This document shows, one piece after another, positions 4,861 to 39,053 of a DNA stretch of 64,000 nt (position 1 is the stretch's first letter; each line of letters opens with the position of its first letter). Source of the DNA: Octopus vulgaris (taxonomy: Eukaryota); contig OX597825.1 of assembly GCA_951406725.2 (NCBI GenBank), forward strand, positions 39,742,001 to 39,806,000. The letters are read 5' to 3'. A model generated the notes under the pieces. The model did not search any database, was not told the DNA's origin, and worked only from the letters and a program-made list of their open reading frames with translations. The position numbers were made by a program, and so were the translations under genes.

Positions 4861-4947
<87 letters not shown>

Positions 4948-4974
4948 TAATAATAATAATAATGAAAATAATAA

Positions 4975-6835: not shown

Positions 6836-6840
<5 letters not shown>
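4975..6840 (+). mobile_element. Second 5'-truncated Dong family A copy
   Basis: Highly similar to 3078-4860; starts at the IFQGD codons; CRICGD..HIISGC, RHD, RPDIV; same 3' UTR then (TAA)n; internal (GAA)n expansion. Confidence 0.95.
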
Positions 6841-6934
<94 letters not shown>

Positions 6935-6959
6935 TATTATTATAATAATACTAATAATG

Positions 6960-7011
<52 letters not shown>

Positions 7012-7407
7012 CAACAACAATAATAATAATAATAACAATAATAATAATAATAATAATTATTATAATAATGATAATGTTAATCATACCATCTAACAAATCA
7101 CTGATGGTGATGGAGATGATGGTGATGATGATAATAATGATAGTAATTGTGCTGATAATCTATCTATCTATTTACACACACACACACAGAGTTCAGCCAA
7201 CACAAGCCTCACCTCGGCTTTTTAGATGTTAACCAAATATGAACGTATTATTTGACATGTAAGGATTCTGGCGTTGAAGGCAACCAGCCAGCCAACCACC
7301 CAGCCAGCCAACGAGACAGACAGACACTACTGTGATGGTGATAATGATAAAAAAGCAAAAATAACAATAATAAGATACTGCTGTAACTACACATAAAACA
7401 ATATCAT

Positions 7408-7451
<44 letters not shown>

Positions 7452-7534
7452 GTGATGGTGATGATGATAATGATGATAGTAATAGTGGTGATAATGATAA
7501 TAGTAATAATAATGGTGATAATAATAACAATAAT

Positions 7535-11372: not shown

Positions 11373-11380
11373 TAATAATG

Positions 11381-11446
<66 letters not shown>

Positions 11447-11798
11447 GTATCAATACCGGCAGATGACAACGTGTCTCTAAAAGAAATAGAGAAACTCTCA
11501 AAATACAAAGACCTGGAAATAGAGGTAACTAGAATGTGGAACCTGAAAACAGAAAGAATTCCTATCATAGTAGGTGATAAAAAAATATTCAGATAAATAC
11601 ATAACAAAAACACCAGGACTTACAAACACATATAACATACAGAAAATTGCACTACTAGGCACTGCACACATCCTACGGAGAACACTTTCCATACAATAAC
11701 CATCAGAGCATCACAACAAATCACAGCACATACTCAAGGCACACAGAGCTGCGCTCGGTAGTGAAGTGAAAGCACGCTATAAAAATAAAACTACTGAA
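11447..11798 (+). mobile_element. Short 3' fragment of Dong family A in (TAA)n
   Basis: Nearly identical to 4499-4860 (VSIPADDNVSLKE...KYKDL plus 3' UTR). Confidence 0.95.
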
Positions 11799-11851
11799 TG
11801 ATAATAATAAGAATAATAACAATAATAATTATAATAATAATAGTAATAAAA

Positions 11852-12378
11852 AACCCTGATGCAGTACCAGTTAGTGGCTCTCATATTTTCTCATCTTAAC
11901 AGATTTGAATGATATCATGTACGTTGTTTGTCTTGGTATAAGTGATCGGCTCCAATAAATTTTCAGCTCAATACCACATATTTGGTTGTCATTTGTTTGA
12001 CCCTAACCAGTTGATTATATCCCTTAGTAGCTGACGATATGTGCATCTATAATTACGAGCATCACAGCCATATGCTGAGAGTAATTGCTTTAAGTTTGGT
12101 TAATTCAACTCTGGAACCATTGGTGTTATGTTCAGTATCCTTAAATATTCGTGACCTTTTTAGCAGGATAGGCTATTGAACCTGAAGAAAATTAATGTGC
12201 CACGCCTGCAAAGTCTTGCGCTGTTAATCTTGATATAAAATCCCTATGTCCTGCACATATTGCTGTGATGCATTTGCCTGGCGTACCCTTATCAGCCGGG
12301 TAGCCTTGATATATATACTGCGCTTCATATATTTTACTCCAGGTTCAATTTTAAGGCATGCACTGGTCCCTCACACAA

Positions 12379-17343: not shown

Positions 17344-17753
17344 ATAATTAATCAATATAGGGTGGCAAACAAATTTTGTAGAATTCTTTTGCCACCAGCG
17401 GCCTAGTGGGAAAAAATTAAATAGTCATAGACCATTTTTAAGTTCAACATCAACAATCAAGGAACGGCCATAATAGGCCATTCACCCACTAGAAATAACA
17501 GCCAAAGCTTCAACCGCAAATAAAAATTAATTCCGTAAACCAGGAGAAAATTTAAAAAACATTTACCTTGTCATTTCTTATACGATATACCGTTTCATCT
17601 GCTGATTAAACGGTATATCGTATAAGAAATTACAAGGTAAATGTTTTTTAAATTTTCTCTGGTTTACGAAAATTAATTTTTATTTGCGTTTGAAGCTTTG
17701 GCTGTTATTTCTAGTGGGTGAATGGCTCATTATGGCCGTTCCTTGATTGTTGA
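17344..17753. mobile_element. Fold-back (inverted) partial copy of the 492-bp ribozyme-repeat family in (TA)n
   Basis: Arms 17450-17595 / 17608-17753; similar to 35719-35985; contains only the 3' half of the hammerhead. Confidence 0.9.
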
Positions 17754-17776
17754 TATATATATATATATATATATAT

Positions 17777-20700
17777 ATTTCAACAATTGAGGGTAAAATT
17801 AATTAATTATTAATCAATTTCACCAAGTGTTCAGTATGCAAAGGGACCATTTAAGGCGAATTCAAATTATTACATTATATAAAAGGGCTTAGTAAAATAA
17901 ATTACTTTGCCGCATACTGAACTCATTAGAAATAGCAGCTAAAAAACTTTTTAAAGCTATTTCTAATACTTAAAGAAAATCTCTCTCATATAGTGTTTGC
18001 TTAACTCAACTCACAAAAGTTTGGGGGTAAGGACATCAAAAAATCAAATGCAAAGGTTATTTGAGAACGTACGTTTCAAGATTAGTCAAAACGACACTTC
18101 TATCATCAGCTCAGAAACTCCTTGGTTTGGATTTGAAAACACTGAAAGTAAGAACATACCCTTTCGGCTTCTCATCGCTTTCGAAGATCTGCTCGTAACT
18201 AACAGTGCCAACAAACTCAAATATGCAAGCGAAGAATTTCTGTTCTCCCCTTTCCACCAGCGTGGGTTAAGATCATCAAACACTATGCTTATTTCGGTAA
18301 AATCCGAAGCATTAATTAGAGGGAGATTAATTATAATTTCAACAATTGAGGGTAAAATTAATTAATTATTAATCAATTTCACCAAGTGTTCAGTATGCAA
18401 AGGGACCATTTAAGGCGAATTCAAATTCGTTTGTTGGCACTGTTAGTTACGAGCAGATCTTCGAAAGCGATGAGAAGCCGAAAGGGTATGTTCTTACTTT
18501 CAGTGTTTTCAAATCCAAACCAAGGAGTTTCTGAGCTGATGATAGAAGTGTCGTTTTGACTAATCTTGAAACGTACGTTCTCAAATAACCTTTGCATTTG
18601 ATTTTTTGATGTCCTTACCCCCAAACTTTTGTGAGTTGAGTTAAGCAAACACTATATGAGAGAGATTTTCTTTAAGTATTAGAAATAGCTTTAAAAAAGT
18701 TTTTTAGCTGCTATTTCTAATGAGTTCAGTATGCGGCAAAGTAATTTATTTTACTAAGCCCTTTTATATAATGTAATAATTTGAATTCGCCTTAAATGGT
18801 CCCTTTGCATACTGAACACTTGGTGAAATTGATTAATAATTAATTAATTTTACCCTCAATTGTTGAAATTATAATTAATCTCCCTCTAATTAATGCTTCA
18901 GATTTTACCGAAATAAGCATAGTGTTTGATGATCTTAACCCACGCTGGTGGAAAGGGGAGAACAGAAATTCTTCGCTTGCATATTTGAGTTTGTTGGCAC
19001 TGTTAGTTACGAGCAGATCTTCGAAAGCGATGAGAAGCGGAAAGGGTATGTTCTTACTTTCAGTGTTTTCAAATCCAAACCAAGGAGTTTCTGAGCTGAT
19101 GATAGAAGTGTCGTTTTGACTAATCTTGAAACGTACGTTCTCAAATAACCTTTGCATTTGATTTTTTGATGTCCTTACCCCCAAACTTTTGTGAGTTGAG
19201 TTAAGCAAACACTATACGAGAGAGATTTTCTTTAAGTATTAGAAATAGCTTTAAAAAAGTTTTTTAGCTGCTATTTCTAATGAGTTCAGTATGCGGCAAA
19301 GTAATTTATTTTACTAAGCCCTTTTATATAATGTAATAATTTGAATTCGCCTTAAATGGTCCCTTTGCATACTGAACACTTGGTGAAATTGATTAATAAT
19401 TAATTAGTTTTACCCTCAATTGTTGAAATTATAATTAATCTCCCTCTAATTAATGCTTCGGATTTTACCGAAATAAGCATAGTGTTTGATGATCTTAACC
19501 CACGCTGGTGGAAAGGGGAGAACAGAAATTCTTCGCTTGCATATTTGAGTTTGTTGGCACTGTTAGTTACGAGCAGATCTTCGAAAGCGATGAGAAGCCG
19601 AAAGGGTATGTTCTTACTTTCAGTGTTTTCAAATCCAAACCAAGGAGTTTCTGAGCTGATGATAGAAGTGTCGTTTTGACTAATCTTGAAACGTACGTTC
19701 TCAAATAACCTTTGCATTTGATTTTTTGATGTCCTTACCCCCAAACTTTTGTGAGTTGAGTTAAGCAAACACTATATGAGAGAGATTTTCTTTAAGTATT
19801 AGAAATAGCTTTAAAAAAGTTTTTTAGCTGCTATTTCTAATGAGTTCAGTATGCGGCAAAGTAATTTATTTTACTAAGCCCTTTTATATAATGTAATAAT
19901 TTGAATTCGCCTTAAATGGTCCCTTTGCATACTGAACACTTGGTGAAATTGATTAATAATTAATTAATTTTACCCTCAATTGTTGAAATTATAATTAATC
20001 TCCCTCTAATTAATGCTTCAGATTTTACCGAAATAAGCATAGTGTTTGATGATCTTAACCCACGCTGGTGGAAAGGGAGAACAGAAATTCTTCGCTTGCA
20101 TATTTGAGTTTGTTGGCACTGTTAGTTACGAGCAGATCTTCGAAAGCGATGAGAAGCGGAAAGGGTATGTTCTTACTTTCAGTGTTTTCAAATCCAAACC
20201 AAGGAGTTTCTGAGCTGATGATAGAAGTGTCGTTTTGACTAATCTTGAAACGTACGTTCTCAAATAACCTTTGCATTTGATTTTTTGATGTCCTTACCCC
20301 CAAACTTTTGTGAGTTGAGTTAAGCAAACACTATACGAGAGAGATTTTCTTTAAGTATTAGAAATAGCTTTAAAAAAGTTTTTTAGCTGCTATTTCTAAT
20401 GAGTTCAGTATGCGGCAAAGTAATTTATTTTACTAAGCCCTTTTATATAATGTAATAATTTGAATTCGCCTTAAATGGTCCCTTTGCATACTGAACACTT
20501 GGTGAAATTGATTAATAATTAATTAGTTTTACCCTCAATTGTTGAAATTATAATTAATCTCCCTCTAATTAATGCTTCGGATTTTACCGAAATAAGCATA
20601 GTGTTTGATGATCTTAACCCACGCTGGTGGAAAGGGGAGAACAGAAATTCTTCGCTTGCATATTTGAGTTTGTTGGCACTGTTAGTTACGAGCAGATCTT

Positions 20701-21571
20701 CGAAAGCGATGAGAAGCCGAAAGGGTATGTTCTTACTTTCAGTGTTTTCAAATCCAAACCAAGGAGTTTCTGAGCTGATGATAGAAGTGTCGTTTTGACT
20801 AATCTTGAAACGTACGTTCTCAAATAACCTTTGCATTTGATTTTTTGATGTCCTTACCCCCAAACTTTTGTGAGTTGAGTTAAGCAAACACTATATGAGA
20901 GAGATTTTCTTTAAGTATTAGAAATAGCTTTAAAAAAGTTTTTTAGCTGCTATTTCTAATGAGTTCAGTATGCGGCAAAGTAATTTATTTTACTAAGCCC
21001 TTTTATATAATGTAATAATTTGAATTCGCCTTAAATGGTCCCTTTGCATACTGAACACTTGGTGAAATTGATTAATAATTAATTAATTTTACCCTCAATT
21101 GTTGAAATTATAATTAATCACCCTCTAATTAATGCTTCGGATTTTACCGAAATAAGCATAGTGTTTGATGATCTTAACCCACGCTGGTGGAAAGGGGAGA
21201 ACAGAAATTCTTCGCTTGCATATTTGAGTTTGTTGGCACTGTTAGTTACGAGCAGATCTTCGAAAGCGATGAGAAGCCGAAAGGGTATGTTCTTACTTTC
21301 AGTGTTTTCAAATCCAAACCAAGGAGTTTCTGAGCTGATGATAGAAGTGTCGTTTTGACTAATCTTGAAACGTACGTTCTCAAATAACCTTTGCATTTGA
21401 TTTTTTGATGTCCTTACCCCCAAACTTTTGTGAGTTGAGTTAAGCAAACACTATATGAGAGAGATTTTCTTTAAGTATTAGAAATAGCTTTAAAAAAGTT
21501 TTTTAGCTGCTATTTCTAATGAGTTCAGTATGCGGCAAAGTAATTTATTTTACTAAGCCCTTTTATATAAT
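17777..21571. mobile_element. ~560-bp hammerhead-containing tandem array with internal inversion (retrozyme-like), flanked by (TA)n
   Basis: ~1.2 units ribozyme-minus (17777-18427), junction at 18428, ~5.6 units ribozyme-plus (18429-21571); units differ by only a few bases. Confidence 0.93.
18532..18583 (+). ncRNA. Type I hammerhead ribozyme motif, 560-bp family (also starting at 19092, 19652, 20211, 20771, 21331 on +; 18062-18113 on -)
   Basis: tgag CTGATGA [t aga..gtc gtttt gac..tct t] GAAA cgtacg TT ctca: 4-bp stem I, palindromic stem III, GUU triplet, U-U mismatch at the base of stem II. Confidence 0.72.
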
Positions 21572-22094
21572 TTATATATATATATATATATATATTGTTA
21601 TATTTCGGAATGGTCATATTGCCAGTTTAGCCAATATATATATATATATGTATACTTATAATAAGAGTAGATCGTATACGAGTGGGTATATATTTGTAAT
21701 AAAGAAATTTGAAAACGCCACTATATTAGTTAAATTTTAATTTTCTTATGAATTTTACATGTTTCGGTTCTTGAAAAAACGAACCTTATCAAAAATATTA
21801 TAAAAGGTAAAGTGTAATAGCAAAGTTCATAATTGTTTCTTACTGGTCTCAATAGAATCCATGTGGTTGTGTTTTGTCGGTAGTAGGTATAATAGCTATA
21901 AATTTCAAGTTGAGTGTAGTAAAGAAGTTCATTATTGTTTCTGAAATGGTAGCAGCAGTAGTGATTGTTGGTCGTAGTAGTAGTAACCTTGGTGGTGGTT
22001 GGGGTTGCAGCAGCTTATTGGTTGGAGCGGCTAAGTTGTGGCAGTCCTAGCAGCAGCAGTATGACCAGTGGCTTAAATGGCAGTAGTAGCAGTT

Positions 22095-23762
22095 ATTGTA
22101 TCCCTAAAGTCCACAAAAACCAAATAATTGGTGAAACATGCAAAACATATTCCGATATGCTCTTCAGAATCCCTTCACCAAATTATCTTAAACTTAGACC
22201 GATAATAGCAGGCCCAGCATGTGAAACTCACCGCCTCAGCAATTTCTTAGACACACTTCTTAAACCTTTCCTAAAGCACATCAAAAGCTACGTAAGAAAC
22301 GATATAGACATGCTTAACCACCTCCCAAAAACAGTCAATGAGAAAACCCGTGTTGTATCCTTCGACGTATTTAACCTTTATTCAAACATCCCACACACCC
22401 TAGGAATAGAAGCGATCACTTTCTGGCTAAATAACTACTCCTTTGAACTCCAAACTCGCATAAATAAAGAACTTATAATAGAAGAACTTAGATTTATTTT
22501 AGAAAAAAATTACTTTATTTTTGACAATAATTTCTACAGACAAAGATCGGGAACAGCGATGGGCACGCGTACAGCGCCTTCTTTTGCCAACCTAGAGATG
22601 GGATACCTCGAGAAAATACTCTACCAGAAAACACTCGAGAAATATGGAAACACCTTCTCCACCTATTTCCAGAACACCTGGAAAAGATGCCTCGACGACT
22701 GCTTTATCCTCTGGGATAAAGGTATAGAGAAACTTGAGGAATTTAAAATACTATTAAATGGAATAAATGATAATATTCAGTTAACGATGGATCATAACGA
22801 AGAAGAATTGCCATTTTTAGACATCATCATTAAGAAAGCCGGCAACAAAATAGAGACAGGTATCTATTATAAACCGACAGACTCCAAGCAGTACCTACCC
22901 TTTGATTCATGCCACCCAAGACACACTAGAATAAATGTCCCTTTTTCTTTAGCTAGAAGGATTTGCACCATAATATCAGACACAAACACCCGACACACAC
23001 GTCTAGGGGGAACTTAGAACTACACTCCTAAATAGAAATTATCCACAGCCCCTAATAGACAGGGCAATCCAACGAGCACTTAAATTAAGTATAGAAGACC
23101 TAAGACGAACAAAACCAAAAAAGAAAGAAAAATTAAAAACCCTTCCCTACTTCTCTACACACAACCCACTTAACAATGAGGCCTTCAGCACCATACTACA
23201 AAGCACAGCCCTACTAAAGGGAGACCCAAAGATGAACCGGATCCTCGAAACACACACCTTCATTAAAAGTAAACGGCTACCAAAAACCTTGAAAATGATT
23301 TTAACCCAAGCTAAACTGCACTAAACATCAACCATAAAACCAGCAGTTAGAAAATGTGGAAAGCCCAACTGCGGAATCTGTGTCATCTTGGTAGAAGGTT
23401 CAGAATTCACATTAGAACAAGGCCATCAGTTTACCATTAGAACAAACTTCACCTGTGCATCAGAAAACTTAATTTACGTCTTAACATGCGCATGTTGCAA
23501 TAGGCAGTATATAGGCCATACAAAAAGCAGCTTACGTAAAAGGATGGCAGTGCATAAATACCAAATTAGAAACCCTGAATACCGGAAAATACCAGTCATC
23601 GGACACATAGATAGTTTCGCTTCAAATAAAAATCCGAAATTTACAGCTTGCCCACTTTACAAATTGAGTGACAGCGTAACCTTCACTCAACGCCAAAATA
23701 AAGAACTTTACTTCATTAACAAATTTAGACCAAGTTTGAACACCATGGGCCAGGAATATTAA
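22095..23762 (+). pseudogene. Penelope-type reverse transcriptase + GIY-YIG endonuclease
   Basis: YCIPKVHK, LRPII, SFDVFNLYSNIP, YRQRSGTAMG, WKRCLDDCF, FLDI, YYKPT, SCHP; CGKPNCGIC; NLIYVLTC..C..YIGHT..LRKRM..H; premature stops near 23015 and 23322. Confidence 0.93.
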
Positions 23763-24268
23763 AACAAAACATTGGTCTTCCGAAAAGAAACATGAAATTC
23801 TACCACAACCACCACGATCACTACGACTGCTTCCACTGCTACTACAACCACTGTGGTCACTACTATTGCTGCTACGATCAACATTCCTCCACTACTGCTG
23901 CTGATACGGCCACAGCTTAACCGCTACAAACCCAACCACCATCACGGTTACCACTACTACGACCAACAGTAACTGCTACTACTGCCATTTAAGCCACTGG
24001 TCATACTGCTGCTGCTAGGACTGCCACAACTTAGCCGCTACAACCAATAAGCTGCTGCAACCCCAACCACCACCACGGTTACTACTACTACGACCAACAA
24101 TCACTATTGCTGCTAACATTTCAGAAACAATAATGAACTTCTTTACTACACTCAACTTGAAATTTATAGCTATTATACCTACTACCGACAAAACACCACC
24201 ACATGGATTCTATTGAGACCAGTAAGAAACAATTATGAACTTTGCTATTACACTTTACTTTTTATAAT

Positions 24269-24313
24269 ATTTTTGATAAGGTTCGTTTTTTCAAGAACCG
24301 AAACATGTAAAAT
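24269..24313 (+). ncRNA. Minimal hammerhead motif in the Penelope pseudo-LTR, U3-A8 core variant (inverted copy 21752-21796 on -)
   Basis: attt TTGATAA ggttc-loop-gaacc GAAA catg TA aaat. Confidence 0.78.
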
Positions 24314-24403
24314 GCATAAGAAAATTAAAATTTATCTAATATAGTGGCGTTTTCAAACTTCTTTTTTACATATATATATATTTGTATACGTATATATATA
24401 TAT

Positions 24404-24434
<31 letters not shown>

Positions 24435-24499
24435 TGTGTGTGTGTGTGAATGTACATGTGTATGTGTGTGAGTGTGTGTATGCGTGGTTGCCTTTATGC

Positions 24500-24732
24500 C
24501 TGTGTTTGTCCCCGTCACCGTTTGACAATCGTTGTTGGTCTGTTTACATCGCTGTACCTTAGCGGTTCGGTAAAAATGATCAATGGATTAAGTACTAAGA
24601 TTTAAAAAGTTGCCCTGTTGTTAGCTTATTCGACTAAAACCGTGGAAAGCATCGCTACACCATGCCACAGTCAAACGACTCAACCAAGTAAAAGAATAAA
24701 AGAATAAAAGAATAAAAGAATAAAAGAATAAA
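24500..24732 (+). mobile_element. SINE 3' half with (AAAAGAAT)n tail
   Basis: tttgacaatcgttgttggtctgtttacatc...cttagcggttcgg...ttcgactaaa; related pieces at ~30330-30450, ~47110-47270 (-) and ~55570-55715. Confidence 0.7.
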
Positions 24733-24739
24733 TGTATGA

Positions 24740-27700
24740 CTCACCGAAGACTTATACCTAAAAATGACGATGACGCGTTAGCAGTAAGAAAAAGCAGCAA
24801 GTACATCCCACTAAGATGTGACGACAAAACCATAGAATATTTCAATGAATACGTTTTAAATTAACCATAAAAACTCACAAAGAATATTACAAACTTAAGA
24901 GGATTGCCTCAGAAAATACAAAAAAATTATAAACAGATAAATAATAGTTAAGAAGGTTGATATAGAAAATGCAGTAGTCTGGAAGGACACAGAATAATAG
25001 TGTCGTATTCATAATAGGAGACAATCCATGCTATAGAAAGACGTAAAACTAAAGTAAAGAGAAAATGAGAAACACGAGGATATTAATAAACTTTTGCAGG
25101 GAAGAATTCATCAACAAAGATTACGTCAATATTACAAACTTCAGATGTACGTCTACAGTCTTGTGTGCCATACGGAAAGTACATAAACGTGGAAATATAT
25201 GTGAAACATGCAAAGAAGTCACTGACATAATACATTAATATCAGATTACCAACTGGTGTGAAACTGAAGATCGATAATAGCTTTTTTTCTAAATCACAAC
25301 CAAAAGATACTTCATAACATGACTAAGAGAAGCTAAAATTTCTCCCGAAAACACTGACCAAAATATCTTTGATAGACTCTATCGATGTAGTGAGATTTTT
25401 ATCCAAATGCTTCTTGCGACTTAACAATTGTGATCTTAAATTCTGTTTGAATAATTAAGTACGTGTTTTTCCAAAAAACGAAATACTTTATATTCAATGA
25501 CAACTTTTTAAACAAAAATCTATAGCTGCAACGTGGACGAAAACGATCCCTCTTTTGCGAATCTACTCATAGACTACCATGATATTACGTTATTGCATGA
25601 AAAATGGGAAGTTCTTTCCGCATAAGCATACAAGAAAAGTTGAAATTACCTTGAGAATTGGTTCATTCAATGGAAGGAAACACTGAGATGCTAAATGAAT
25701 TGCAAACACTTCTCACTGGAATTAATAATATTCAATTTAGTAGGAAATATAGCCCTAACGATCTCGCAATTGTTGGCATTCTAATAATGAAAGTCAATAA
25801 CCAAAAATGATAGAATCCAAACAATATCTTCCGTTCCGTTTATGCTATTCGAAACACACCAGAATAAATATCCGTTATATCCTTGCCAAAATTATTTGTA
25901 TGATAGTATTCGATACAAACATCCGTATTCTTTAATCTAGAATGACATTCAGCGAGTCAAGAAATCCAGTGCATATCTTTGTGAAAGTAAAGAGAACGAT
26001 CTAAAATAACATTGCTGGTCAACCAGGAAGTATATTGAAATTGCAAGACTCACCAAACAAGAGAACATCTTTCGAAATTTATACAGTATATTGACACGGA
26101 AACATATGGACGCATCTTAATCTGACGTCCTCATAGTCTCATAGTCTCACTACCAAGCTCATTCTACAAGAAGTTACTTCGCTGTAATTAATAAAAGAAA
26201 CCGCCAGAATTGCATATATGGAGAGGATAGTCAAAAAATTATATAAACAGGTCAAGTGTGTTCCAGTTCAAATATCGTTCAAATATTTCTTGCACATTTA
26301 AATTAAATTGTATTGCTTTCATCTAATATTTTTTATTTAGTCCATGCAATTATTTACATGGATTTCTTATTCTATTTACGTGTTAACGCATAACATTCTT
26401 CAACTACCGCATAACATTCTTCAACTATTCCAGTTGTTCTTGTTATAACACAGACGCTTCTATTTACTTTCTACGAACAAAAATGAAGCTATTTTGAATA
26501 TTTCTAATTCTCTGTAATCTGCAGGACTCATGTAGAATATACTATTTCTATGTTGTGTATTTTCGGTTATTTTTTATCATACCAGTGGCATTACTATATG
26601 ATGTGTGTTTACTGTTTGAAACTATTGCATAGATATGCACCAGAAATATTAAGATTAGTAACTGTTGTATCTATTCATCTGATGGACGTGTTTAACTGTA
26701 TATATTTTGAAATAGAAATAACATTTCACTATCACTATATAAAATAATCTGAAAAAACCCAGAACTAAAAAATGTATGAGGCATAAATGCTTCAATTATC
26801 AAAGCCCAAACAACTTACATATTCAGGTATGGACTCGGATTGTCTTCCAGCAAAAAATAATATTTTTTGTATCACTTCGTAATAATTCATGCAATAGAGT
26901 GTTACCAAACGAAATTCAAACTTGTATTTAGCATTAAAAAATCACCTTCTATGAATTGGTTATGGTATGGGTTGCATTAAATGTAGAGAATACACATTAA
27001 ATAGGTGTACGAAAATTGACAAATTATCAGTATTTACATATTAGAAATATACGATCAAACATGCAACCCCGAAGAAAATATAAAATGCTAAAATGCAAAG
27101 AGTAATTAAAAGAACCCTTATTCCTAACAGAGAAACCTTCCTGCAATCCGTTTGTCCTATAAACCTCTGACAAACAATAACCAATATATAATATTTATAA
27201 CCCATTAATAAGATTTGTTATTAAATCCAAAATTATTTTTAGATTATAATTAGAAAGTAGAAGCAATTTCATATCAAAATATTTCAAAAGATCAAGTCGT
27301 TATGAGAACATCGTTCAAGTATGTAGAAACCATAAATGGTAATTATAAAACCATGCCAGAGAGATTTGGCTGTAAACGAAGATTTATAAGACAAAGTTTC
27401 TTGAATTAAGGAGAAATAACGACATCAGATAAGTAGATCAGAGGTACCCATACTAATACTTTCCACTAGCAATTGAGGCTACAAAAGAAACAGAATTAAA
27501 TAGCAGAAATAAGATCATAACAAACTTCTCTATAATATATTTGAAGTTAAATGATAAGAAACTTGTACTTGTAAAGAAAATATGGAAACTTCTTACAAGC
27601 GTCTGTAAACACTATACCTATGTTATTATGAATAGACGATAACTAGCAAATGCAGTTTGATATCAGAGATGGATACTATGTCAACACTGTTTACCTTAGT

Positions 27701-28010
27701 AAGTGCAACCATATTTCAGTGTTGTAATAATTCCAGCAATATAGCAACAATACGAATAACATATAATTAGAAAAAAAATGAAAAGAATATTTATGTTACA
27801 GGGAAAAAAAGCAAAACATTTAATATATGGCGAAGTAATTTAAGATACACCTAACGTTAACTAGAATGCGAACAAAGTCAATAGAATTCTTGAAAAGTGA
27901 CAATGAAACAAGTTCGTAAAAATCATAACACAATGTAAGTGGAAATTGCCAAATCAAAACTGGAGAGAGGCATGAAGATATCACTAATAATTTGTAATAT
28001 AACATAGCTA
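24740..28010 (+). mobile_element. Very old decayed non-LTR (R4/Dong-like) remnants
   Basis: A-rich strand bias with faint zinc-knuckle-region resemblance near 27700; no intact frame. Confidence 0.3.
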
Positions 28011-29317
28011 GGATGATATCCTGGCTATGATATAGAAGGCCAAAATCCCTATACTGACTATATTATAGAAAACGAACATTGACCCATAAAAGTTGATTAA
28101 AATATCCTCAACAAATGGATGAAGTAGCTTGCACAGCGGTTGCAAATCCGCAAGTAAAGATTTTTGACGAAAACGTATGGGTAATTTGATGGAATATGTG
28201 CAGTTCTTTGGTGGAAGTATATAGAAAATTGATAACATCACCTGTCAACTATTGAAAATTTATTTATTAAATTTTATTTATGGCTTTATTGAGAAGCAGT
28301 ACTTGAAGAACGAGAATGTATGCATGACTTGAATGACGGCATGTGATTTCATGTGAGCTATATGACTAATAGAAAAGTTAAATAAGCATCTAATATAAGA
28401 TAAGGGGTTAAGATCAGCTACGATATGTTCGAGGATTTATGGGTGTCATCGTGCAACAACTAAATATATTTCAAGTTTTCATGCAGTTGATTTTGTATAT
28501 TATCTCTTTAGAATCGATGTTGTGAAATGTTCTAGAAGAAAATATTCCTTCAGTACAACCAAGGAACGTGGTCATAATTACAAACATTTCATCGTCTACC
28601 TACACACGGCAAGGCAATATGTGTATCTTAAAACGGTAGATAGCTTGAAAAGCTGCGTGATTGAATATGTTTGAAGGGAATAGTAAGCATTCTGCGCTTT
28701 TATATTGAAACCATATCTGTACTTAGATACATACGGAGAGTTGACATTACAATTGAAGGTGCAGAACGCAAATACGTTTTATGCAATGTGATATTAATGA
28801 TGTTAGCGCTAGAGATATACATGAAAAAGGTATCACCTAAGTATGTACAAGTAAGCTAGGCAATGACCGTTGGGTCTTAGAATTACCCTTGAGATATAAA
28901 CGAATAAGAGGACAAACAAAAGACATTACCAACAATTTTGGTAGGAATTTCATATATTTAATAAAAGTTTGACCTCTAGGTCAATTTCGCGGATTAATAT
29001 TATGAGCACGAAGATAGGTCAGAAAAAAATACAAACATACCTATCAACCTACCTTCCAAGCTACCTATATATATATAAATATATATATATAGGTGAATTG
29101 CGGAAACCATGGTTCGCTTTGTTTTCTGACTTTATAATCATTTCATAATAATGACTTTTATGACATTTATTACTACCTCAATCCATCTAAATGTATATAT
29201 TTGTCGTTACCTGTCAAAAAAAGCCTTTTTTTTTGCAATGTGCATTTTCGCTGATTTTTCATATTTTACCCTTACATATCCACGTGTAATGTTTCTTTTC
29301 TTTTTGTAACATATTTC

Positions 29318-29362
<45 letters not shown>

Positions 29363-29386
29363 CATACACACATGCATCCACCTATA

Positions 29387-30230
29387 TACAGGGCGCAATG
29401 GGTAAATTGACACTAATTTGCATTCTTAATTTTGCGCATGCGCATTGTTATTTTTTATGTTGTCGACTACAGAGCATAGTAATGTCAGTTGAAAACAGTC
29501 TGTGAGAAATACAGCACAATGACGCAATTCACTTTGCCCTAAATTTTGAAAGGACATGCTGTATTGCTTCGCTTTCGCGCCTGAAGATCCAATACGAACA
29601 CTTCCGAGTATTTGGGAGTCAACTTGAGAACAGTCCAATGTGAGAACATGTGCCTTGAGTGGTAAAAATATCCAATAAAGAGCATGGTGTTTTGAGTGAT
29701 CACTAGTGATAGCGACCTTATGCCTCCATTCATGTTCCTACACGGCCTCACTCTCCACACAGAGGCCCATATCAAGTGACTGGAGGAAGTAGCGTTGCCC
29801 TTGATCAAGTGAGTGACTGCTGAATGACACTATGTCTGGCAACAGGATTCTGCAAGATGCCATACAAACAGGGGAACCAACTCATGGCTATCAGATAATT
29901 TCTGCGACCACATCACCCCTAATATCTAGCCGCATAACTCACTAGACTGCAACCCCATTCATTATTATGAGCGAGTGACCAAGAAAATTCCGTAAAATAC
30001 CGAAGATAAATTGAAGGCTAGGATTATGGTAGCATTCACCAACTTAAACAAGGAGATCGTCCAGTAAAGTTGCAGGAGATCCCAAAGTCCTCTGAGGCCG
30101 TGGTTGAAGTGAATGTCGATTTTATTGAATAAATGTACTTTTTAGTTTTAGATATTTTTATGGAGATTTGGTAAAGATAGCTGTTAAAATGAGATGTCAT
30201 GTCATTTACAAACTTGCGTAACTTCTTATA
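29387..30230 (+). mobile_element. Decayed Tc1/mariner-superfamily deletion derivative
   Basis: TA|CAGGG terminus; WQQDSARCHT at ~29837 and an S.DCNP-like motif at ~29940. Confidence 0.7.
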
Positions 30231-30479
30231 CATGTGTGTATATATATATATGTGTGTCTGTGTGTATATGTGTGTGCGCGTGTGTATTTATGTGCTAGTA
30301 TTTATGTGTTTGTCTTTGTGTCTGTGTTTATCTCTCCAACCCTAGTTGGTGTGTTTACGTCCCCGTAAACTAGTGCTACGGCCGAAGAACCGATAGAATA
30401 AAAGCCAAGCTTAGAAAGAATTAGTCCAGGAATCGTTTTCTGCGACTAACGCGTAACCTATGATCATTTTTATGGAACA

Positions 30480-30720
30480 CCAGCAATTGTCCATGCAACC
30501 AACATTTCCTCTCCACGCCACCGATGTTATTCAAGGGAAAAACAACGGCCGGTACAGCTTATCACCAATGATGTTGCAAGTCATTTCTACAGCTGAGTGA
30601 ACTGGAGCAACATGAAAAAAAGAGGCGTGCTCAAGAACACAACACGCAGCGCTATCCGGGAATCGAACTCAACCTCAAGATCGTAAGTTGGACACTAACC
30701 ACTGAGCTATATTCCTTCAT
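30480..30720 (-). mobile_element. tRNA-derived SINE (different family)
   Basis: ctggagcaa...gctcaagaacacaac central domain and gggaatcgaactc / taaccactgagc B- and A-box complements. Confidence 0.7.
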
Positions 30721-30737
30721 TATATACATACATACAA

Positions 30738-30823
<86 letters not shown>

Positions 30824-31125
30824 ATATATCGTGAATTATATTTGCCACTTAAATGTGGCTAACCTTTAAGGGTGGATGCTACTGTAGCTTGTTGTCCCAG
30901 GAGGACACCGCCTCCAGCGGGCTATTGACACACTTTTCTGTGCCCTATGAGTATTTGCAAAGGGAAACCATTCTTCCCGTATATATATATATATATATAT
31001 AACGGGAAGCTTTATGAAAATAGACAAAAGACGAAGGTAGGTTTACGGAAATAAAGAAAAGACGAAGGCAGGTGGAATACAAACAAACAATTGTATTAGT
31101 ATGGCTTTCAGGAAATATAAATAAA

Positions 31126-31196
<71 letters not shown>

Positions 31197-31197
<1 letters not shown>

Positions 31198-31928
31198 GAG
31201 GGCATTATTACACATACATGCCACACGCTAAGAGGGACATTAGTCATTTCTACCAAAAAATTTTACTAATCATACCCAATGCAATTTTTCAAAGCAAGAC
31301 ATTTAAAAAATGAATTTAGTCTTGTATCACCTGTGATTTCGTACTTACCGCAGTTGCGACCGTACTCATCAGCAAGACTGATTCTGAACATATCATAAAT
31401 AAACGACCTCGCACCGTCAAAGCCGAACAGCTATCTGTTCTACTCTAACGAAGCACATGGGGAAGTTTACATATAATACATCCGGTAAATGGCAGGCTTC
31501 TTCGAATTGCATTTCGGATAGGAAAAGTTTTTTTGGAATATAATTATTTAACAATTAAGGATAACTTCTTAATAAGGAATCTTAACAAGAAATTATCAGG
31601 TAGATAGCGTGAAAAACCTCATAAGAGAAAACATTTCGAAAATAATTCTTTCTTATTGAACATATTACTTTATATATAGAGGGCATTATTACACATACAT
31701 GCCACACGCTAAGAGGGACATTAGTCATTTCTACCAAAAAATTTTACTAATCATACCCAATGCAATTTTTCAAAGCAAGACATTTAAAAAATGAATTTAG
31801 TCTTGTATCATCTGTGATTTCGTACTTACCGCAGTTGCGACCGTACTCATCAGCAAGACTGATTCATGCTATCTACCTGATAATTTCTTGTTAAGATTCC
31901 TTATTAAGAAGTTATCTGTAATTGTTAA

Positions 31929-31935
<7 letters not shown>
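31197..31935 (-). mobile_element. 481-bp hammerhead-containing tandem repeat (1.4 units) with a short terminal inversion, in (TA)n
   Basis: Direct repeat 31197/31678; 31864-31935 is the reverse complement of ~31541-31612. Confidence 0.9.
31318..31379 (-). ncRNA. Type I hammerhead ribozyme, 481-bp family (second copy 31799-31860)
   Basis: Minus strand: agtcttg CTGATGA gtac...gtac GAAA tca-cagg-tga TA caagact; 7-bp stem I, canonical core. Confidence 0.88.
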
Positions 31936-32000
<65 letters not shown>

Positions 32001-32003
<3 letters not shown>

Positions 32004-33013
32004 TAATACTAAGTAATTAAGGGTTTAGCAACGAATTGCCTCACCAACACACCGAATTTAGAAATAGCAGTCAAATAGATATAGCTATTCCTTCTACTAA
32101 AAGGGGGATCTCAGTAAAAACACAGCACTTGAAAGGCAAACACAGACAGGTAAGAAAGAAAGAATGAAATGACGGCAATCCATCATACAATTTTAAGTTA
32201 CCTACGGACGTACGTTTCGAAATCAAGTTTTAGGAGAGCATAAGAATTAGAAAATTCTACTTTACCCAAACTTCTTTTCTCATCGGCGCAGGATACCACA
32301 ATTATGAATAATTATATATTAAATTTTGAGATACTAGAAGGCATTATCTCAACTCAGTGTCAGAGCGAGCCAAAGCATGACCAGTACCACGAAATTCAAA
32401 GTTTGAATGAAAGTTTGTGTCACCAGCCCCCTTCCACCCGCGTGTAGCCAAGACAAAATGCTGCGGTCATTTACTGGGATAAAATATGGTTATCAGTAAT
32501 AATAAAGGGTGAAATTAATTAATTTGGAATAATTATCAATTACACCAAGTAGATTTCGGCATGTAAAAGCCCCATTCGAGGAAAATTTAAGTAATACTAA
32601 GTAATTAAGGGTTTAGCAACGAATTGCCTCACCAACACACCGAATTTAGAAATAGCAGTCAAAGAGATATAGCTATTCCTTCTACTAAAAGGGGGATCTC
32701 AGTAAAGACACAGCACTTGAAAGGCAAACACAGACAGGTAAGAAAGAAAGAATGAAATGACGGCAATCCATCATACAATTTTAAGTTACCTACGGACGTA
32801 CGTTTCGAAATCAAGTTTTAGGAGAGCATAAGAATTAGAAGATTCTACTTTACCCAAACTTCTTTTCTCATCGGCGCAGGATACCACAATTATGAATAAT
32901 TGTATATTAAATTTTGAGATACTAGAAGGCATTATCTCAACTCAGTGTCAGAGTGAGCCAAAGCATGACCAGTACCACGAAATTCAAAGTTTGAATGAAA
33001 GTTTGTGTCACCA
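32001..33013 (-). mobile_element. 588-bp hammerhead-containing tandem repeat (1.7 units) in (TA)n
   Basis: Direct repeat 32001/32589 with few differences; (TA)n on both sides. Confidence 0.9.
32201..32292 (-). ncRNA. Type I hammerhead ribozyme, 588-bp family, CCGAUGA core (second copy 32789-32880)
   Basis: Minus strand: cctgcg CCGATGA gaaa...tttc GAAA cgtacg TC cgtagg; 6-bp stem I with one G-U pair, long stem II, GUC triplet. Confidence 0.85.
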
Positions 33014-34509
33014 TATATATATATATATATATATATATTACACATTTGTAGAAACACACACACAAATATATATATGATGGCAATCTTTTCTACCATGAGG
33101 AATAGGCGCACGGCATCTGCTAGCTATGTAAACCACACCTTAAATGAAGGTTTAAGTTCAAATTTACCTAATATATCTCATGTATGATGACGATGGCCTT
33201 TATCTTTGGCCTTTATCGTCTACTGCAGTTTTAGTTCCTCTTGCTTTGTTAAAAATGCGATCTGGATGAAGTTTCGCTATACCTCCCTCTATTCCTCGAC
33301 TCCCTAATTACTTGAATTTGTTCAGCAAATATCCTTACATAAATATATTTCAGTGTAGTTTTCCAAATTTCTTTGGAGTTCAATATTACAGGATTTCTGG
33401 CGGTCTCTTTCAGGAAACATCTGACATTTGTTGTGACGTGTACTTAGGAAAATTGTCTTTGTTAGAGACTTGAGACTATTTCCTTATTTGAATGCTCACT
33501 TTTCGACAAATCTTTGAAACTTCTTGGTAAATAACTTGATATTTTATCATCGTCATTACTTTTGTTTAACTCAAGTCTGATAATTGAAAGTAAACTATTT
33601 ATTTTAAATATAAACAACATTATAAATCATATAAACTTGATCATATAAACATGCATTGATCACAAAATTAATCTTTCAAGAAAAGAAAAGTTATATGAAA
33701 GAAATAAAAAAAAAATTAAAGAAGACTTAGATAGACGCTGTGAATATTTTCTGATAAATTACTATATTAGTAATAACGGATATACAGTAGAAATTATGGA
33801 CATTATAAGCAGACAGAGAAAAATGTAAAGAATGTGTGCATAACTTAATTAGTAAATTAATGTTATCAGTTGAGCCATTGAATTTAGCAATAGAATTTAC
33901 GTAATAGAAAAGTATAAAATCTTCAATTAAAGCTCTGATAGGATAGTACATTGATTTATATTGAAAACAAAAAACGCATTTAAGCTTCTAGAATATTCAT
34001 ATTGTAGCTCAGTAATACCTCAATATTTCTCATCTGAAGAACAATTACACTTTACAAATTAAAACAAAATAAATTTCTCTCGTTAAATCGAGGCAAAAGT
34101 ATGGGAAAAGAAACAGTAAATTTACATGACCCCCGTATTTTCGTTCCATTTCGTTATTTTAGATCTTGAATTATAATGTAATGTATTAACGTAATCACAA
34201 CCCCAAATCATACACACCCATATAATGAATGATCCAACTTTTAATTTCTTTGGTTGTTATAGGTGGATAGAGTAATAACATATCGCAAAATGTGTACACC
34301 TTTATACTGAACTCAAATAAATAAAAAAAAGAAAGATAACATATACAAATAAATAAGTAATACTGTAGAAAGAGTTGTGTTCCGCAAGTAGATAGATATT
34401 GATGACAGCGCAAAGAAAACCAAAAGCAGCAACTAGGTGAGTCAAAATCCCGCGGTAGATGTTGGCATGTCATTTCATATAAAACCTACTCTAGCAAATA
34501 GTGTGAGTA

Positions 34510-34747
34510 TATACTCTTTTACTCTCTTGACTCTTTTACTTGTTTCAGGCATTTGACTATTGTCATGCTGGAGCACTGCCTTTAGTCGAGCAAATCGACC
34601 CCAGGATTTATTATTTGTAAGCCTAGTACTCACAAGGCTTTGGTCGGCCCGAGACTATAGTAGAAGACACTTTCAGAAGGTGCCACGCAGTGGGACTGAA
34701 CCCGGAACCATATGGTTGCTAAGCAAGCTACTTACCACACTCCTATG

Positions 34748-34750
<3 letters not shown>
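34510..34750 (-). mobile_element. SINE (internally deleted)
   Basis: Tail cttttacttgtttcag..catgctggagcac and tRNA-like head gtgccacgcagtgggactgaacccgg. Confidence 0.75.
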
Positions 34751-34796
<46 letters not shown>

Positions 34797-34798
<2 letters not shown>

Positions 34799-35612
34799 AT
34801 CACAACAGTTTGATACAAATTCATTGGTAATCTTGAGATTCAAACGCGATACTAGTCGTCAGCCATTGAGAATTTGAATTACTGAACTTGAATGTTATTA
34901 AGGTAAGATAGGGTGGAATTGGACTAGAAAGGTCGGAAATGGTGTCGTGGTTTGATGTTGGTATATGAGTAACAGGTAATTGGAAAACACAGCATGGCGA
35001 ACACGAAATTGACAAAGTGGAGAACAGGAAATAGATTAGAAGCCGGTCAGGTTGTTGGGGGAGTAGGACGGGGCGGCATATGCAAGTATATAGTTCTATA
35101 TTGTGGGTGTGCAGACGTGCCCGTATACTTTTGCATGCATGTATGCGAATATGCGAATGTACATATGAATGAATAAGCATGTGTGTATGAGCCTATGTAC
35201 GTACATGTGTGTATAAGCGTGTGTATGTGTGTGCAGACGCGCGTGTGCGTACAGATTCACACATGGGTATCAATATACACATGCACGAAAAATTATATTA
35301 GAGTCTGTGCACACCCAGATATATACTAGCAAATGCCCCCCTCCTACTTACATCCAACAACCTGACCGACTAATAGTCTATTTCTTGTCCACGTGGTCAA
35401 TATTCTGCTCTCTATGCATTATTTTCCAACTAACATTTACCCATTTACCAACATAAAACCACGATATCGCATAACCTTCCTCGACCAATCGCAGATCACC
35501 TTACGGTAATAATAATCAACTTCTGTCTTCGAAATTCGAAATAGCTGACGACTAGCATCACGCTTCCACCTACAGCGTACAATCGAAATTGAATCAAGCT
35601 GTTGTGATCCAT
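34797..35612. repeat. Diverged ~270-bp inverted repeat flanked by (TA)n
   Basis: Arms ~34797-35065 / ~35335-35612 (ggatcacaacag / ctgttgtgatcc; ggtcaggttgttgg / ccaacaacctgacc). Confidence 0.8.
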
Positions 35613-35665
35613 TCATGTAACTTCCAATACACTGGTTGTATGCCTTTCTTTCGTTCGACCACTCA

Positions 35666-35718
<53 letters not shown>

Positions 35719-35721
<3 letters not shown>

Positions 35722-38700
35722 ATCAATATAGGGTGGCAAAAAAAAAATTTTGTAGAATTCTTTTGCCACCAGCGGCCTAGTGGGAAAAAATTAAATAGTC
35801 ATAAACCATTTTTAAGTTCAACATCACAATCAAGGAACGGCCATAATAGGCCATTCACCCACTAGAAATAACAGCCAAAAGCTTTAACCGCAAAATAACA
35901 TCAATTCCGTAAACCAGGAGAAAATTAAAAAACATTTACCCTGTAATTTCTTAGACGATGCACCGTTTCATCTACTGTTTAATGGTAAACTAACCTGATT
36001 AAATTAAATCAAGCCAATCTACCATAGGCCCTTAGATTCATCAGTAAGAAATAGCCAAGTCGGAACAGATATTTTTCACGAGGCATTCCCGTTGCTACCT
36101 CGGCAATATCTGACCTAAAATTTTCAAATCGTCGCACTCGCGCCAAATTTATCGGCAGCAAATAAATATAAGCCGCCGATTCCATTACGGAATTAACCAG
36201 AAAATTCATAATTAATCAATATAGGGTGGCAAAAAAAAAATTTGTAGAATTCTTTTGCCACCAGCGGCCTAGTGGGAAAAAATTAAATAGTCATAAACCA
36301 TTTTTAAGTTCAACATCACAATCAAGGAACGGCCATAATAGGCCATTCACCCACTAGAAATAACAGCCAAAAGCTTTAACCGCAAAATAACATCAATTCC
36401 GTAAACCAGGAGAAAATTAAAAAACATTTACCCTGTAATTTCTTAGACGATGCACCGTTTCATCTACTGTTTAATGGTAAACAAACCTGATTAAATTAAA
36501 TCAAGCCAATCTACCATAGGCCCTTAGATTCATCAGTAAGAAATAGCCAAGTCGGAACAGATATTTTTCACGAGGCATTCCCGTTGCTACCTCGGCAATA
36601 TCTGACCTAAAATTTTCAAATCGTCGCACTCGCGCCAAATTTATCGGCAGCAAATAAATATAAGCCGCCGATTCCATTACGGAATTAACCAGAAAATTCA
36701 TAATTAATCAATATAGGGTGGCAAAAAAAAAATTTTGTAGAATTCTTTTGCCACCAGCGGCCTAGTGGGAAAAAATTAAATAGTCATAAACCATTTTTAA
36801 GTTCAACATCACAATCAAGGAACGGCCATAATAGGCCATTCACCCACTAGAAATAACAGCCAAAAGCTTTAACCGCAAAATAACATCAATTCCGTAAACC
36901 AGGAGAAAATTAAAAAACATTTACCCTGTAATTTCTTAGACGATGCACCGTTTCATCTACTGTTTAATGGTAAACTAACCTGATTAAATTAAATCAAGCC
37001 AATCTACCATAGGCCCTTAGATTCATCAGTAAGAAATAGCCAAGTCGGAACAGATATTTTTCACGAGGCATTCCCGTTGCTACCTCGGCAATATCTGACC
37101 TAAAATTTTCAAATCGTCGCACTCGCGCCAAATTTATCGGCAGCAAATAAATATATGCCGCCGATTCCATTACGGAATTAACCAGGAAATTCATAATTAA
37201 TCAATATAGGGTGGCAAAAAAAAAAAAAAAATTTTGTAGAATTCTTTTGCCACCAGCGGCCTAGTGGGAAAAAAATTAAATAGTCATAAACAATTTTTAA
37301 GTTCAACATCACAATCAAGGAACGGCCATAATAGGCCATTCACCCACTAGAAATAACAGCCAAAAGCTTTAACCGCAAAATAACATCAATTCCGTAAACC
37401 AGGAGAAAATTAAAAAACAGTTACCCTGTAATTTCTTAGACGATGCACCGTTTCATCTACTGTTTAATGGTAAACTAACCTGATTAAATTAAATCAAGCC
37501 AATCTACCATAGGCCCTTAGATTCATCAGTAAGAAATAGCCAAGTCGGAACAGATATTTTTCACGAGGCATTCCCGTTGCTACCTCGGCAATATCTGACC
37601 TAAAATTTTCAAATCGTCGCACTCGCGCCAAATTTATCGGCAGCAAATAAATATAAGCCGCCGATTCCATTACGGAATTAACCAGAAAATTCATAATTAA
37701 TCAATATAGGGTGGCAAAAAAAAATTTTGTAGAATTCTTTTGCCACCAGCGGCCTAGTGGGAAAAAATTAAATAGTCATAAACCATTTTTAAGTTCAACA
37801 TCACAATCAAGGAACGCCCATAATAGGCCATTCACCCACTAGAAATAACAGCCAAAAGCTTTAACCGCAAAATAACATCAATTCCGTAAACCAGGAGAAA
37901 ATTAAAAAACATTTACCCTGTAATTTCTTAGACGATGCACCGTTTCATCTACTGTTTAATGGTAAACTAACCTGATTAAATTAAATCAAGCCAATCTACC
38001 ATAGGCCCATAGATTCATCAGTAAGAAATAGCCAAGTCGGAACAGATATTTTTCACGAGGCACTCCCGTTGCTACCTCGGCAATATCTGACGTAAAATTT
38101 TCAAATCGTCGCACTCGCACTATATTGATTAATTATGAATTTTCTGGTTAATTCCGTAATGGAATCGGCGGCTTATATTTATTTGCTGATGATAAATTTG
38201 GCGCGAGTGCGACGATTTGAAAATTTTAGGTCAGATATTGCCGAGGTAGCAACGGGAATGCCTCGTGAAAAATATCTGTTCCGACTTGGCTATTTCTTAC
38301 TGATGAATCTAAGGGCCTATGGTAGATTGGCTTGATTTAATTTAATCAGGTTAGTTTACCATTAAACAGTAGATGAAACGGTGCATCGTCTAAGAAATTA
38401 CAGGGTAAATGTTTTTTAATTTTCTCCTGGTTTATGGAATTGATGTTATTTTGCGGTTAAAGCTTTTGGCTGTTATTTCTAGTGGGTGAATGGCCTATTA
38501 TGGCCGTTCCTTGATTGTGATGTTGAACTTAAAAATGGTTTATGACTATTTAATTTTTTCCCACTAGGCCGCTGGTGGCAAAAGAATTCTACAAAATTTT
38601 TTTTTTGCCACCCTATATTGATTAATTATGAATTTTCTGGTTAATTCCGTAATGGAATCGGCGGCTTATATTTATTTGCTGCCGATAAATTTGGCGCGAG

Positions 38701-39013
38701 TGCGACGATTTGAAAATTTTAGGTCAGATATTGCCGAGGTAGCAACGGGAATGCCTCGCGAAAAATATCTGTTCCGACTTGGCTATTTCTTACTGATGAA
38801 TCTAAGGGCCTATGGTAGATTGGCTTGATTTAATTTAATCAGGTTAGTTTACCATTAAACAGTAGATGAAACGGTGCATCGTCTAAGAAATTACAGGGTA
38901 AATGTTTTTTAATTTTCTCCTGGTTTACGGAATTGATGTTATTTTGCGGTTAAAGCTTTTGGCTGTTATTTCTAGTGGGTGAATGGCCTATTATGGCCGT
39001 TCCTTGATTGTGA
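35719..39013. mobile_element. ~492-bp hammerhead-containing tandem array with internal inversion (retrozyme-like), flanked by (TA)n
   Basis: ~4.9 units ribozyme-minus (35719-38118), junction at 38119, ~1.8 units ribozyme-plus (38120-39013). Confidence 0.94.
38292..38398 (+). ncRNA. Type I hammerhead ribozyme, 492-bp family (also 38785-38891 on +; 35946-36052, 36438-36544, 36931-37037, 37431-37537, 37923-38029 on -)
   Basis: atttctta CTGATGA atcta[58-nt hairpin insert]tagat GAAA cgg-tgca-tcg TC taagaaat: perfect 8-bp stem I, canonical core, GUC. Confidence 0.93.
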
Positions 39014-39053
39014 TATATATATACATATATACACACATATATACATATACACA

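Follow-up and report, generated by a model that had tools for sequence, protein, structure and literature searches.

Retrozyme insertions in Octopus vulgaris end at two paired internal sites and were probably written by a Penelope-like reverse transcriptase

Endonuclease-positive Penelope-like elements (EN+ PLEs) are found in (TA)n targets as inverted, 5′-truncated copies, often with a tail at one end only, by a mechanism that has been called undefined (PMC8557442). In vitro, a PLE protein that is predicted to form a dimer cuts and extends both strands of its target, and its reverse transcriptase (RT) starts at two internal sites that bound a tail of 30–40 bp, with no strand difference in the choice of start site and with hammerhead cleavage not required (PMC11167929). 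A self-priming model has also been described for these elements (PMC3846280). For retrozymes, a circular RNA template and mobilization by PLEs have been proposed (PMC7229834), and metazoan retrozymes have been related to the pseudo-long terminal repeats (pLTRs) of PLEs in a study that, in its accessible text, is without junction analysis (bioRxiv 10.64898/2026.07.22.740005). We describe here four families of hammerhead-bearing tandem repeats in a stretch of 64,000 nucleotides from Octopus vulgaris (assembly GCA_951406725.2, contig OX597825.1, positions 39,742,001 to 39,806,000, forward strand; hereafter the window). An earlier note on this DNA had claimed that their insertions end at recurrent positions just after a CCT-containing motif and away from the ribozyme cleavage site.

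Self-comparison of the window revealed five insertions from four tandem families, with units of 492, 560, 588 and 481 nt. Each unit carries one type I hammerhead pattern, of which the putative core and cut triplet were placed by motif (an Rfam scan gave no match at the gathering score for the hammerhead units), and units are numbered from the base after the NUH cut. The four units contain no open reading frame (ORF) for an RT or a GIY-YIG endonuclease, with stem-to-stem ORFs of ∼123 amino acids at most, and only a neighbouring PLE at 21634–24427 has both coding regions. All four families are dispersed and multicopy, as seen from 39 separate loci fetched for each in the assembly (2.8 Gb, 227 contigs, eukaryotic). 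The metazoan non-LTR (long terminal repeat) retrozymes (PMC7229834; bioRxiv 10.64898/2026.07.22.740005), the class to which we assign these families, likewise have a low GC content, are dispersed, co-occur with PLEs and are built of non-coding tandem repeats, each a few hundred bp long and bearing a single type I hammerhead. The units of the four families are longer than the 150–450 bp of PMC7229834 and lie inside the 51–972 bp of bioRxiv 10.64898/2026.07.22.740005. The arm maps contain no terminal direct repeats; no separate search was made for primer-binding sites or polypurine tracts. In their accessible portions, neither retrozyme paper maps insertion ends or start sites or describes a two-armed structure.

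The insertions of each family end at two defined internal sites, termed A and B, that lie away from the cleavage site. The 39 further loci per family were the best-scoring of 1,210, 1,575, 2,079 and 1,830 first-look candidates, and the resulting sample of ∼40 best candidates per family favours long copies. Arms were mapped on unit concatemers and clusters of <100 nt in total were dropped before counting, which left 165 insertions, window copies included. Their 286 outer 3′ ends comprise 138 at A, 127 at B and 21 elsewhere (265/286 at A or B), and form two sharp peaks per family: at unit positions 131 (A, 29 ends) and 234–239 (B, 35) in the 492 family, 193 (20) and 290/294 (37) in the 560 family, 201/207 (34) and 296–311 (21) in the 588 family, and 135/137 (26) and 254–268 (31) in the 481 family. 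The spacing from A to B is about 106, 99, 96–97 and 126 nt, respectively. Windows of ±14 nt around the two sites cover 10–12% of a unit, with centres set from the same data, and the clustering within them has a binomial p of <1e-51 in every family. A TA flank is present at 271/286 ends, and none of the 286 lies within 14 nt of the hammerhead cut, in agreement with the earlier note. In a hold-out set of ten new 492-family insertions, obtained with an 80-nt query and fixed windows (12 of 30 loci were used, the rest overlapping known insertions), 18/18 outer 3′ ends were at A or B. Five older flank relatives (73–88% identical) likewise end at B. The TA joints at 38521, 38523 and 38629 are repeated in contigs from other public runs, the best DNA run of which may be the source sample, and no pair of same-family insertions has common flanks at 95% over 200 nt. 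Contigs of four runs, none on record as RNA, showed no transcript starts, ends or strand. We infer that A and B are reverse-transcription starts, since on either side it is a sense 3′ end that meets the TA target and since PLE RT starts internally in vitro (PMC11167929); the claim that RT starts at two internal sites is supported to this extent, the sites being observed and their nature as starts being drawn from polarity and from that result.

In the window, all of the quoted (TA)n junctions were recovered. The 492-family array has an arm of 4.9 units to site B (unit 235) at 35719–38118 (− strand, five hammerhead cut sites, junction 35719) and an arm of 1.8 units to site A (unit 131) at 38120–39014 (+ strand, cuts 38390 and 38883, junction 39013). 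An older copy of this family (∼92% identical) has one arm at 17344–17609 (−), which reaches site B (unit 239) at about 17344–17348, where the TA tract is degenerate, and an opposite arm at 17608–17753 (+), whose site A end at 17753 is joined to (TA)n; as had been claimed, it uses essentially the same two ends. In the 560-family array, an arm of 1.16 units to site B (unit 290) at 17777–18427 (−, cut 18066, junction 17777) faces one of 5.6 units to site A (unit 193) at 18429–21571 (+, six cuts from 18579 to 21378, junction 21571), in which a two-unit block was apparently duplicated after insertion. The 481-family array consists of 1.4 units to site A (unit 135) at 31190–31865 (−, cuts 31325 and 31806, end about 31190–31197) and a short opposite arm to site B (unit 264) at 31863–31934 (+, end about 31932). 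The 588-family insertion at 32000–33013 (−, cuts 32207 and 32795) is single-armed, with 1.7 units, a 3′ end at site A (unit 207, 32001) and a 5′ end that is also in (TA)n; it is the sole 588 end in the window, and site B of this family was seen only genome-wide. Its hammerhead core is CCGAUGA, a variant that is dominant in the 588 family (window 32200–32260, −), and older flank relatives (L043, L046 and L056) retain CUGA. An old 481-like two-armed relic (68–77% identical) occupies 59600–60335; its + arm reaches an A-type site and its − arm is without a clean TA-joined end. The + junction described for this relic is real, but it is located at 60335 (+), that is, at 60.3 kb rather than 59.6 kb.

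The two sites are used in pairs. Two head-to-head arms, with both sense 3′ ends outward to the target, are present in 121/165 insertions. These comprise 99 A+B insertions, one A+A, one B+B and 20 in which at least one end is off-site (A+other in 11, B+other in 8 and other+other in 1). A+B pairing thus accounts for 99 of the 101 classifiable two-armed insertions where independent choice would give half (p=2e-27), and therefore the two primings are coupled. The hold-out set gave A+B in 8/8 two-armed insertions. The arm ending at A is the longer of the two in 55 A+B insertions and the arm ending at B in 44; in 37 of these 99, each arm is more than one unit long. The 44 single-armed copies end at A in 26 cases and at B in 18. 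Central joints are ungapped in 59 of 87 simple two-armed insertions, and 31 of these 59 have at least 2 nt in common, compared with 19% expected (p=1e-8). In L147, L077, L075 and L146, some arms include several short fragments that are out of order, close to the joint or ahead of the terminal site, which suggests template switching during end joining. Separately, 5′ truncations recur in the 492 family at unit 203–213 (the poly(T) strand of hairpin B, described below) and 297, and 5′-end clusters of the 481 family at 397–399 and 453–459 track a subfamily indel; the clusters at 203–213, 397–399 and 453–459 were treated as pauses or alignment effects.

The two arms of an insertion also carry one haplotype. 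With homopolymer runs and 5 nt at arm ends masked, arm-to-arm mismatch at family-polymorphic sites was 25/1,651 within insertions, compared with 34–42% between insertions. Private variants, defined as those of one insertion only among ∼40 sampled copies, were present in both arms in 52 cases across 34/118 insertions, whereas 6 were fixed in one arm yet absent from its partner. At sites covered at least three times, 30 of the both-arm private variants were fixed in all units and 8 were partial, and divergence between units was 0.40% within arms and 0.48% across arms, a near-equality that would be expected if arrays are mostly born multi-unit. There are observations that weigh against a single template for every array. 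The 8 partly shared variants, and block or periodic patterns in some long arrays including the 560 arm of the window, indicate that in some cases the templates were heterogeneous or that units were later converted or duplicated; part of the likeness of the two arms could also stem from gene conversion between these adjacent, inverted sequences. Private variants recur with a period of 2–4 units over part of an arm in L037, L060, L083, L105 and window 18429–21571, which would reflect higher-order duplication after insertion or multimeric templates. No support was found for an RNA-editing signature among the fixed variants (A>G 9 versus T>C 8; singletons 22 versus 41; p=0.26).

Near-obligate A+B pairing and a shared haplotype together call for a mechanism in which the two primings are coupled and draw on a single template lineage. 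We consider it likely that these non-coding retrozymes are written by a Penelope-like RT-endonuclease, a predicted dimer. The enzyme would nick the two strands of a (TA)n tract and use a single RNA, probably a circle, as the template of two cDNAs, one primed at site A and one at site B. One RT active site would dock at each of two predicted hairpins, 1–4 nt of TA pairing would fix the exact start base, both RTs would run upstream for anything from a fraction of a unit to several units, and the two cDNA ends would be joined by microhomology. Single-armed copies would then arise when just one priming succeeds. Some long arrays have grown further through duplication of units once inserted. More tentatively, each insertion may be the record of a double rolling-circle target-primed reverse transcription, in which a PLE-like RT dimer on one circular retrozyme RNA, with one active site per hairpin, would roll two cDNAs from the two cut strands; the tail would then correspond to the spacing of the docking hairpins, and the starts would be defined by structure as in telomerase.

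The form of the template was assessed from how far the arms extend. A cut monomer offers only 131–300 nt upstream of A or B. In contrast, 234/265 A/B arms continue upstream for >25 nt beyond the cut and 189 are longer than one unit, a count subject to the long-copy bias of the sample; in the hold-out set 9/10 insertions cross the cut. The arms read through cut sites 504 times in all, and the 406 crossings that were scored contain 1 indel, with substitutions in 24, mostly of the 492 family. Because the arms outrun the monomer and cross the cut without scars, the main template is a circle or an uncut multimer, as the earlier note had preferred over a linear monomer cut at the NUH site, and among templates other than cut monomers it is probably a circle. 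R2-type RTs are capable of template jumping, and tandems might similarly be rebuilt if an RT jumped from the 5′ end of a cut linear monomer to the 3′ end of the same or another monomer. There is an excess of 5′ ends 1–20 nt after the cut (25/287, including 10 from the 588 family, versus 10.9 expected; the 20 nt preceding the cut contain 7), and both arms of the hold-out insertion L270 lie inside one monomer. Such ends count against a purely uncut template and suggest that a minority of templates are linear and cut, or that RT pauses at the cut. As the general route, however, jumping is highly doubtful, given the single indel among the scored crossings and hardly any haplotype switching between units despite a difference of ∼35% at polymorphic sites between insertions. 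A circle must also be weighed against the same paired PLE priming on an uncut linear multimeric transcript of an existing array, the length of which would be regrown by duplication after insertion. The in vitro preference of the anole PLE for unprocessed RNA, with the hammerhead dispensable (PMC11167929), is a point against a circle and in favour of this template, as are the 8 both-arm variants found in only some units, the block duplications and the arms of more than one unit that stop just after a cut site. Nevertheless, we regard a linear multimer as rather unlikely: arrays are nearly uniform at polymorphic sites, private variants are mostly fixed and within-arm divergence is close to cross-arm divergence, all as for a one-unit template; moreover, copying of linear arrays alone would shorten them in each round, and hammerhead cores are retained in all four families.

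Two further explanations dispense with paired priming. An inverted arm might arise from a single cDNA that folds back or primes itself, perhaps with an antisense template (PMC3846280), and endonuclease resolution would then set the second end (PMC8557442). This route would likewise give arms of a single haplotype, the two 5′ ends lie near each other (within 6% of a unit) in 15/87 joints, and a near-palindromic joint recurs in the 492 family, where L036 and L038 have nearly identical central joints of this kind. However, 10.4 close pairs are expected in any case (p=0.09), most joints connect distant unit positions, either arm may be far longer, and the tail ends coincide with RT start sites (PMC11167929); fold-back is unsupported as a general route and we consider it improbable. 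The remaining explanation, in which ends would be uniform or would result from AT microhomology, from later recombination with TA tracts or from assembly error, is contradicted by the counts and we regard it as very improbable. TA pairing does contribute: the peaks at A and B mostly have 1–4 nt of alternating TA (one 481 sub-peak has 8 nt and one 5 nt), sub-peaks inside each site track TA steps, and site A is very AT-rich in the 560 and 481 families. A steep microhomology weighting alone predicts 92% of ends inside the windows for the 560 family and nearly all for the 481 family, because of a TATATA run near A, but for the 492 and 588 families the same weighting predicts only 39% and 0.4%. TA sites outside the windows that are as good or better go almost unused. 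TA steps of at least 2 nt occur in the 492 unit at 62 sites outside the windows, with 1 end, and at 9 sites inside, with 58 ends; outside the windows, 60 such sites received 0 ends in the 560 family, 68 received 5 in the 588 family and 60 received 3 in the 481 family. Even the best TATATA site of the 560 family, 2 nt before A, takes only 2 of 28 A ends. TA pairing thus picks the exact base within a site, not which site is used. Nor can microhomology yield the near-exclusive A+B pairing, and assembly error is countered by the recurrence of joints in contigs from other runs.

The CCT-containing motif is accounted for by a predicted structure. The motif CC[C/T]T lies 6–17 nt upstream of all eight A and B sites, a situation that holds for 5–15% of unit positions; it occurs 2, 9, 8 and 4 times in the four units, and in the 492 unit its two occurrences stand once before each site. 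In minimum-energy folds of the four units, a predicted long-range helix encloses hairpin A and an AU-rich stretch with site A, and is followed by hairpin B and site B. The predicted hairpins are closed at the base by pairs ending CC and then CU or UU, such that the CCT motif would be the base of a hairpin. The main end peaks lie 7–17 nt 3′ of the predicted hairpin, and B sub-peaks lie further away. Site A is predicted to be weakly paired in the 560 and 588 units and partly paired in the 492 and 481 units. This predicted twin hairpin start module is about 165–185 nt long and has folding z scores of −5.3, −5.9, −1.65 and −3.7 in the four units; an example is 38472–38635 (+), unit 82–245 of the 492 family (z −5.3). 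Consensus folds of 5 and 7 diverged sequences recovered parts of the module. Two-sided changes were found in 11/31 and 4/25 pairs, but the covariation terms were unfavourable, which counts against the module, and the alignment was imperfect: the long-range helix was wrongly placed in the 492 and 588 sequences by the automatic procedure, and covariation therefore lends weak support.

PLEs with a comparable end pattern are present in the same genome. The neighbouring element at 21634–24427 (+) is a decayed autonomous PLE with an inverted pLTR arm (21634–22099), an RT region (22100–23014) below the Pfam cut-off and a GIY-YIG region (23325–23759) above it. Its two ends, each joined to (TA)n, are separated by ∼45–50 nt within the pLTR. 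At 30 loci of its family, an older sister of the young family described below, recovered with a query biased to B, the ends were read as five A+B, one B+B and two B+other. A GIY-YIG scan gave 6,136 candidates, of which 150 were scored, with many identical frames of 781 amino acids. These belong to a young TA-targeting family with RT and GIY-YIG domains, for which 20 long-ORF copies were fetched; 16 of the other 19 are at least 99% identical to L280. The family's end is present in all 20 copies; 18 ends are at A and 5 are at B, two sites separated by 35 nt, and each of the three two-armed copies is A+B. In the 781-amino-acid ORF the motif C-x4-C-x2-C precedes the GIY-YIG motif, the feature given for Neptune and Nematis (PMC8557442), and by this linker motif the young family seems to be of the Neptune/Nematis type. 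It is a candidate helper only. Two observations weigh against it: no similarity to the four units could be detected in its terminal repeat, and the fold of its A/B region differs from the retrozyme module. Similarly, no homology of pLTRs to the retrozymes emerged among the 150 scored candidates and the 20 long-ORF copies: at 30 GIY-YIG loci the unit matches were only upstream of the endonuclease and were read as neighbouring insertions, and the 3′ regions of three other PLE relics (L085, L032 and L184) were read by eye.

Several other properties of these PLEs were noted. In the young family (L277–L296, for example L280:2531–7760), an upstream ORF, of 466 amino acids in L280 and L290, overlaps the RT-endonuclease frame, and the overlap contains a T-TTT-TTA heptamer in 16/20 copies, a candidate −1 frameshift site. 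ORF1 is split off by a frameshift in some PLE types (PMC8557442, Fig. 1 legend). The minimal hammerhead core of both PLEs, UUGAUAA (window 24280–24320, +, and 21745–21790, −; L277–L296), replaces C3 and G8 with U3 and A8, a change that would preserve the 3–8 pair. The PLE hammerhead cut is ∼60 nt upstream of site A, and therefore full-length copies must read through the cut in these elements too. In the older PLE the 3′ region (window 21941–22099 and 23801–24124) has low-complexity internal repeats, and in the young sister family the same region has different repeats rich in CCAAT and TGACGT, which suggests fast turnover of the 3′ untranslated region under a conserved ORF and end.

The retrozymes therefore share with EN+ PLEs (PMC11167929; PMC8557442; PMC3846280) two internal end sites off the hammerhead cut with a one-ended tail, an inverted 5′-truncated arm and AT-rich or (TA)n targets, and extension of both strands is the result obtained with PLE protein in vitro. 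They differ in having no ORF, in a tail of 97–126 nt rather than 30–40, in arms that are often both multi-unit, in the predicted twin hairpin module, and in near-obligate A+B pairing as opposed to the absence of a strand difference in start site in vitro. The element class and the two-site (tail) principle were already known; what appears to be new, judged from the sequences, is the near-obligate A+B pairing, the single template lineage, the long tail and the predicted twin module on non-autonomous retrozymes. The earlier note contained neither the pairing within one insertion, nor the CCT motif as a predicted hairpin base, nor the known PLE tail pattern. Outside subscription papers, we found no literature, in its accessible portions, that maps retrozyme ends, counts A+B pairing or describes a start module. 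There is also a resemblance to L1 twin priming, in which two target nicks prime on one RNA to give an inverted insertion with a microhomology joint. The retrozymes have the same inverted arms joined by microhomology, and would have the same two nicks priming one RNA, but their starts are fixed, internal and structured by prediction, without poly(A) priming, and the two-armed form is the majority outcome in this sample (121/165). The predicted module, being short, offers the existing in vitro assay for PLEs a defined substrate. Should a movable hairpin indeed set the start of RT, that hairpin would act as a cis-element of an RT related to telomerase and could serve as a handle for writing a chosen RNA into (TA)n.

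Elsewhere in the window, two related fragments (75% identical) at 54744–54926 and 59015–59208 (−) have a short hammerhead motif and apparently represent another family of PLE-type terminal repeats. The region 491–12000 contains several nested or tandem decayed RT frames, putatively of the type found in long interspersed nuclear elements, with trinucleotide microsatellites in between.

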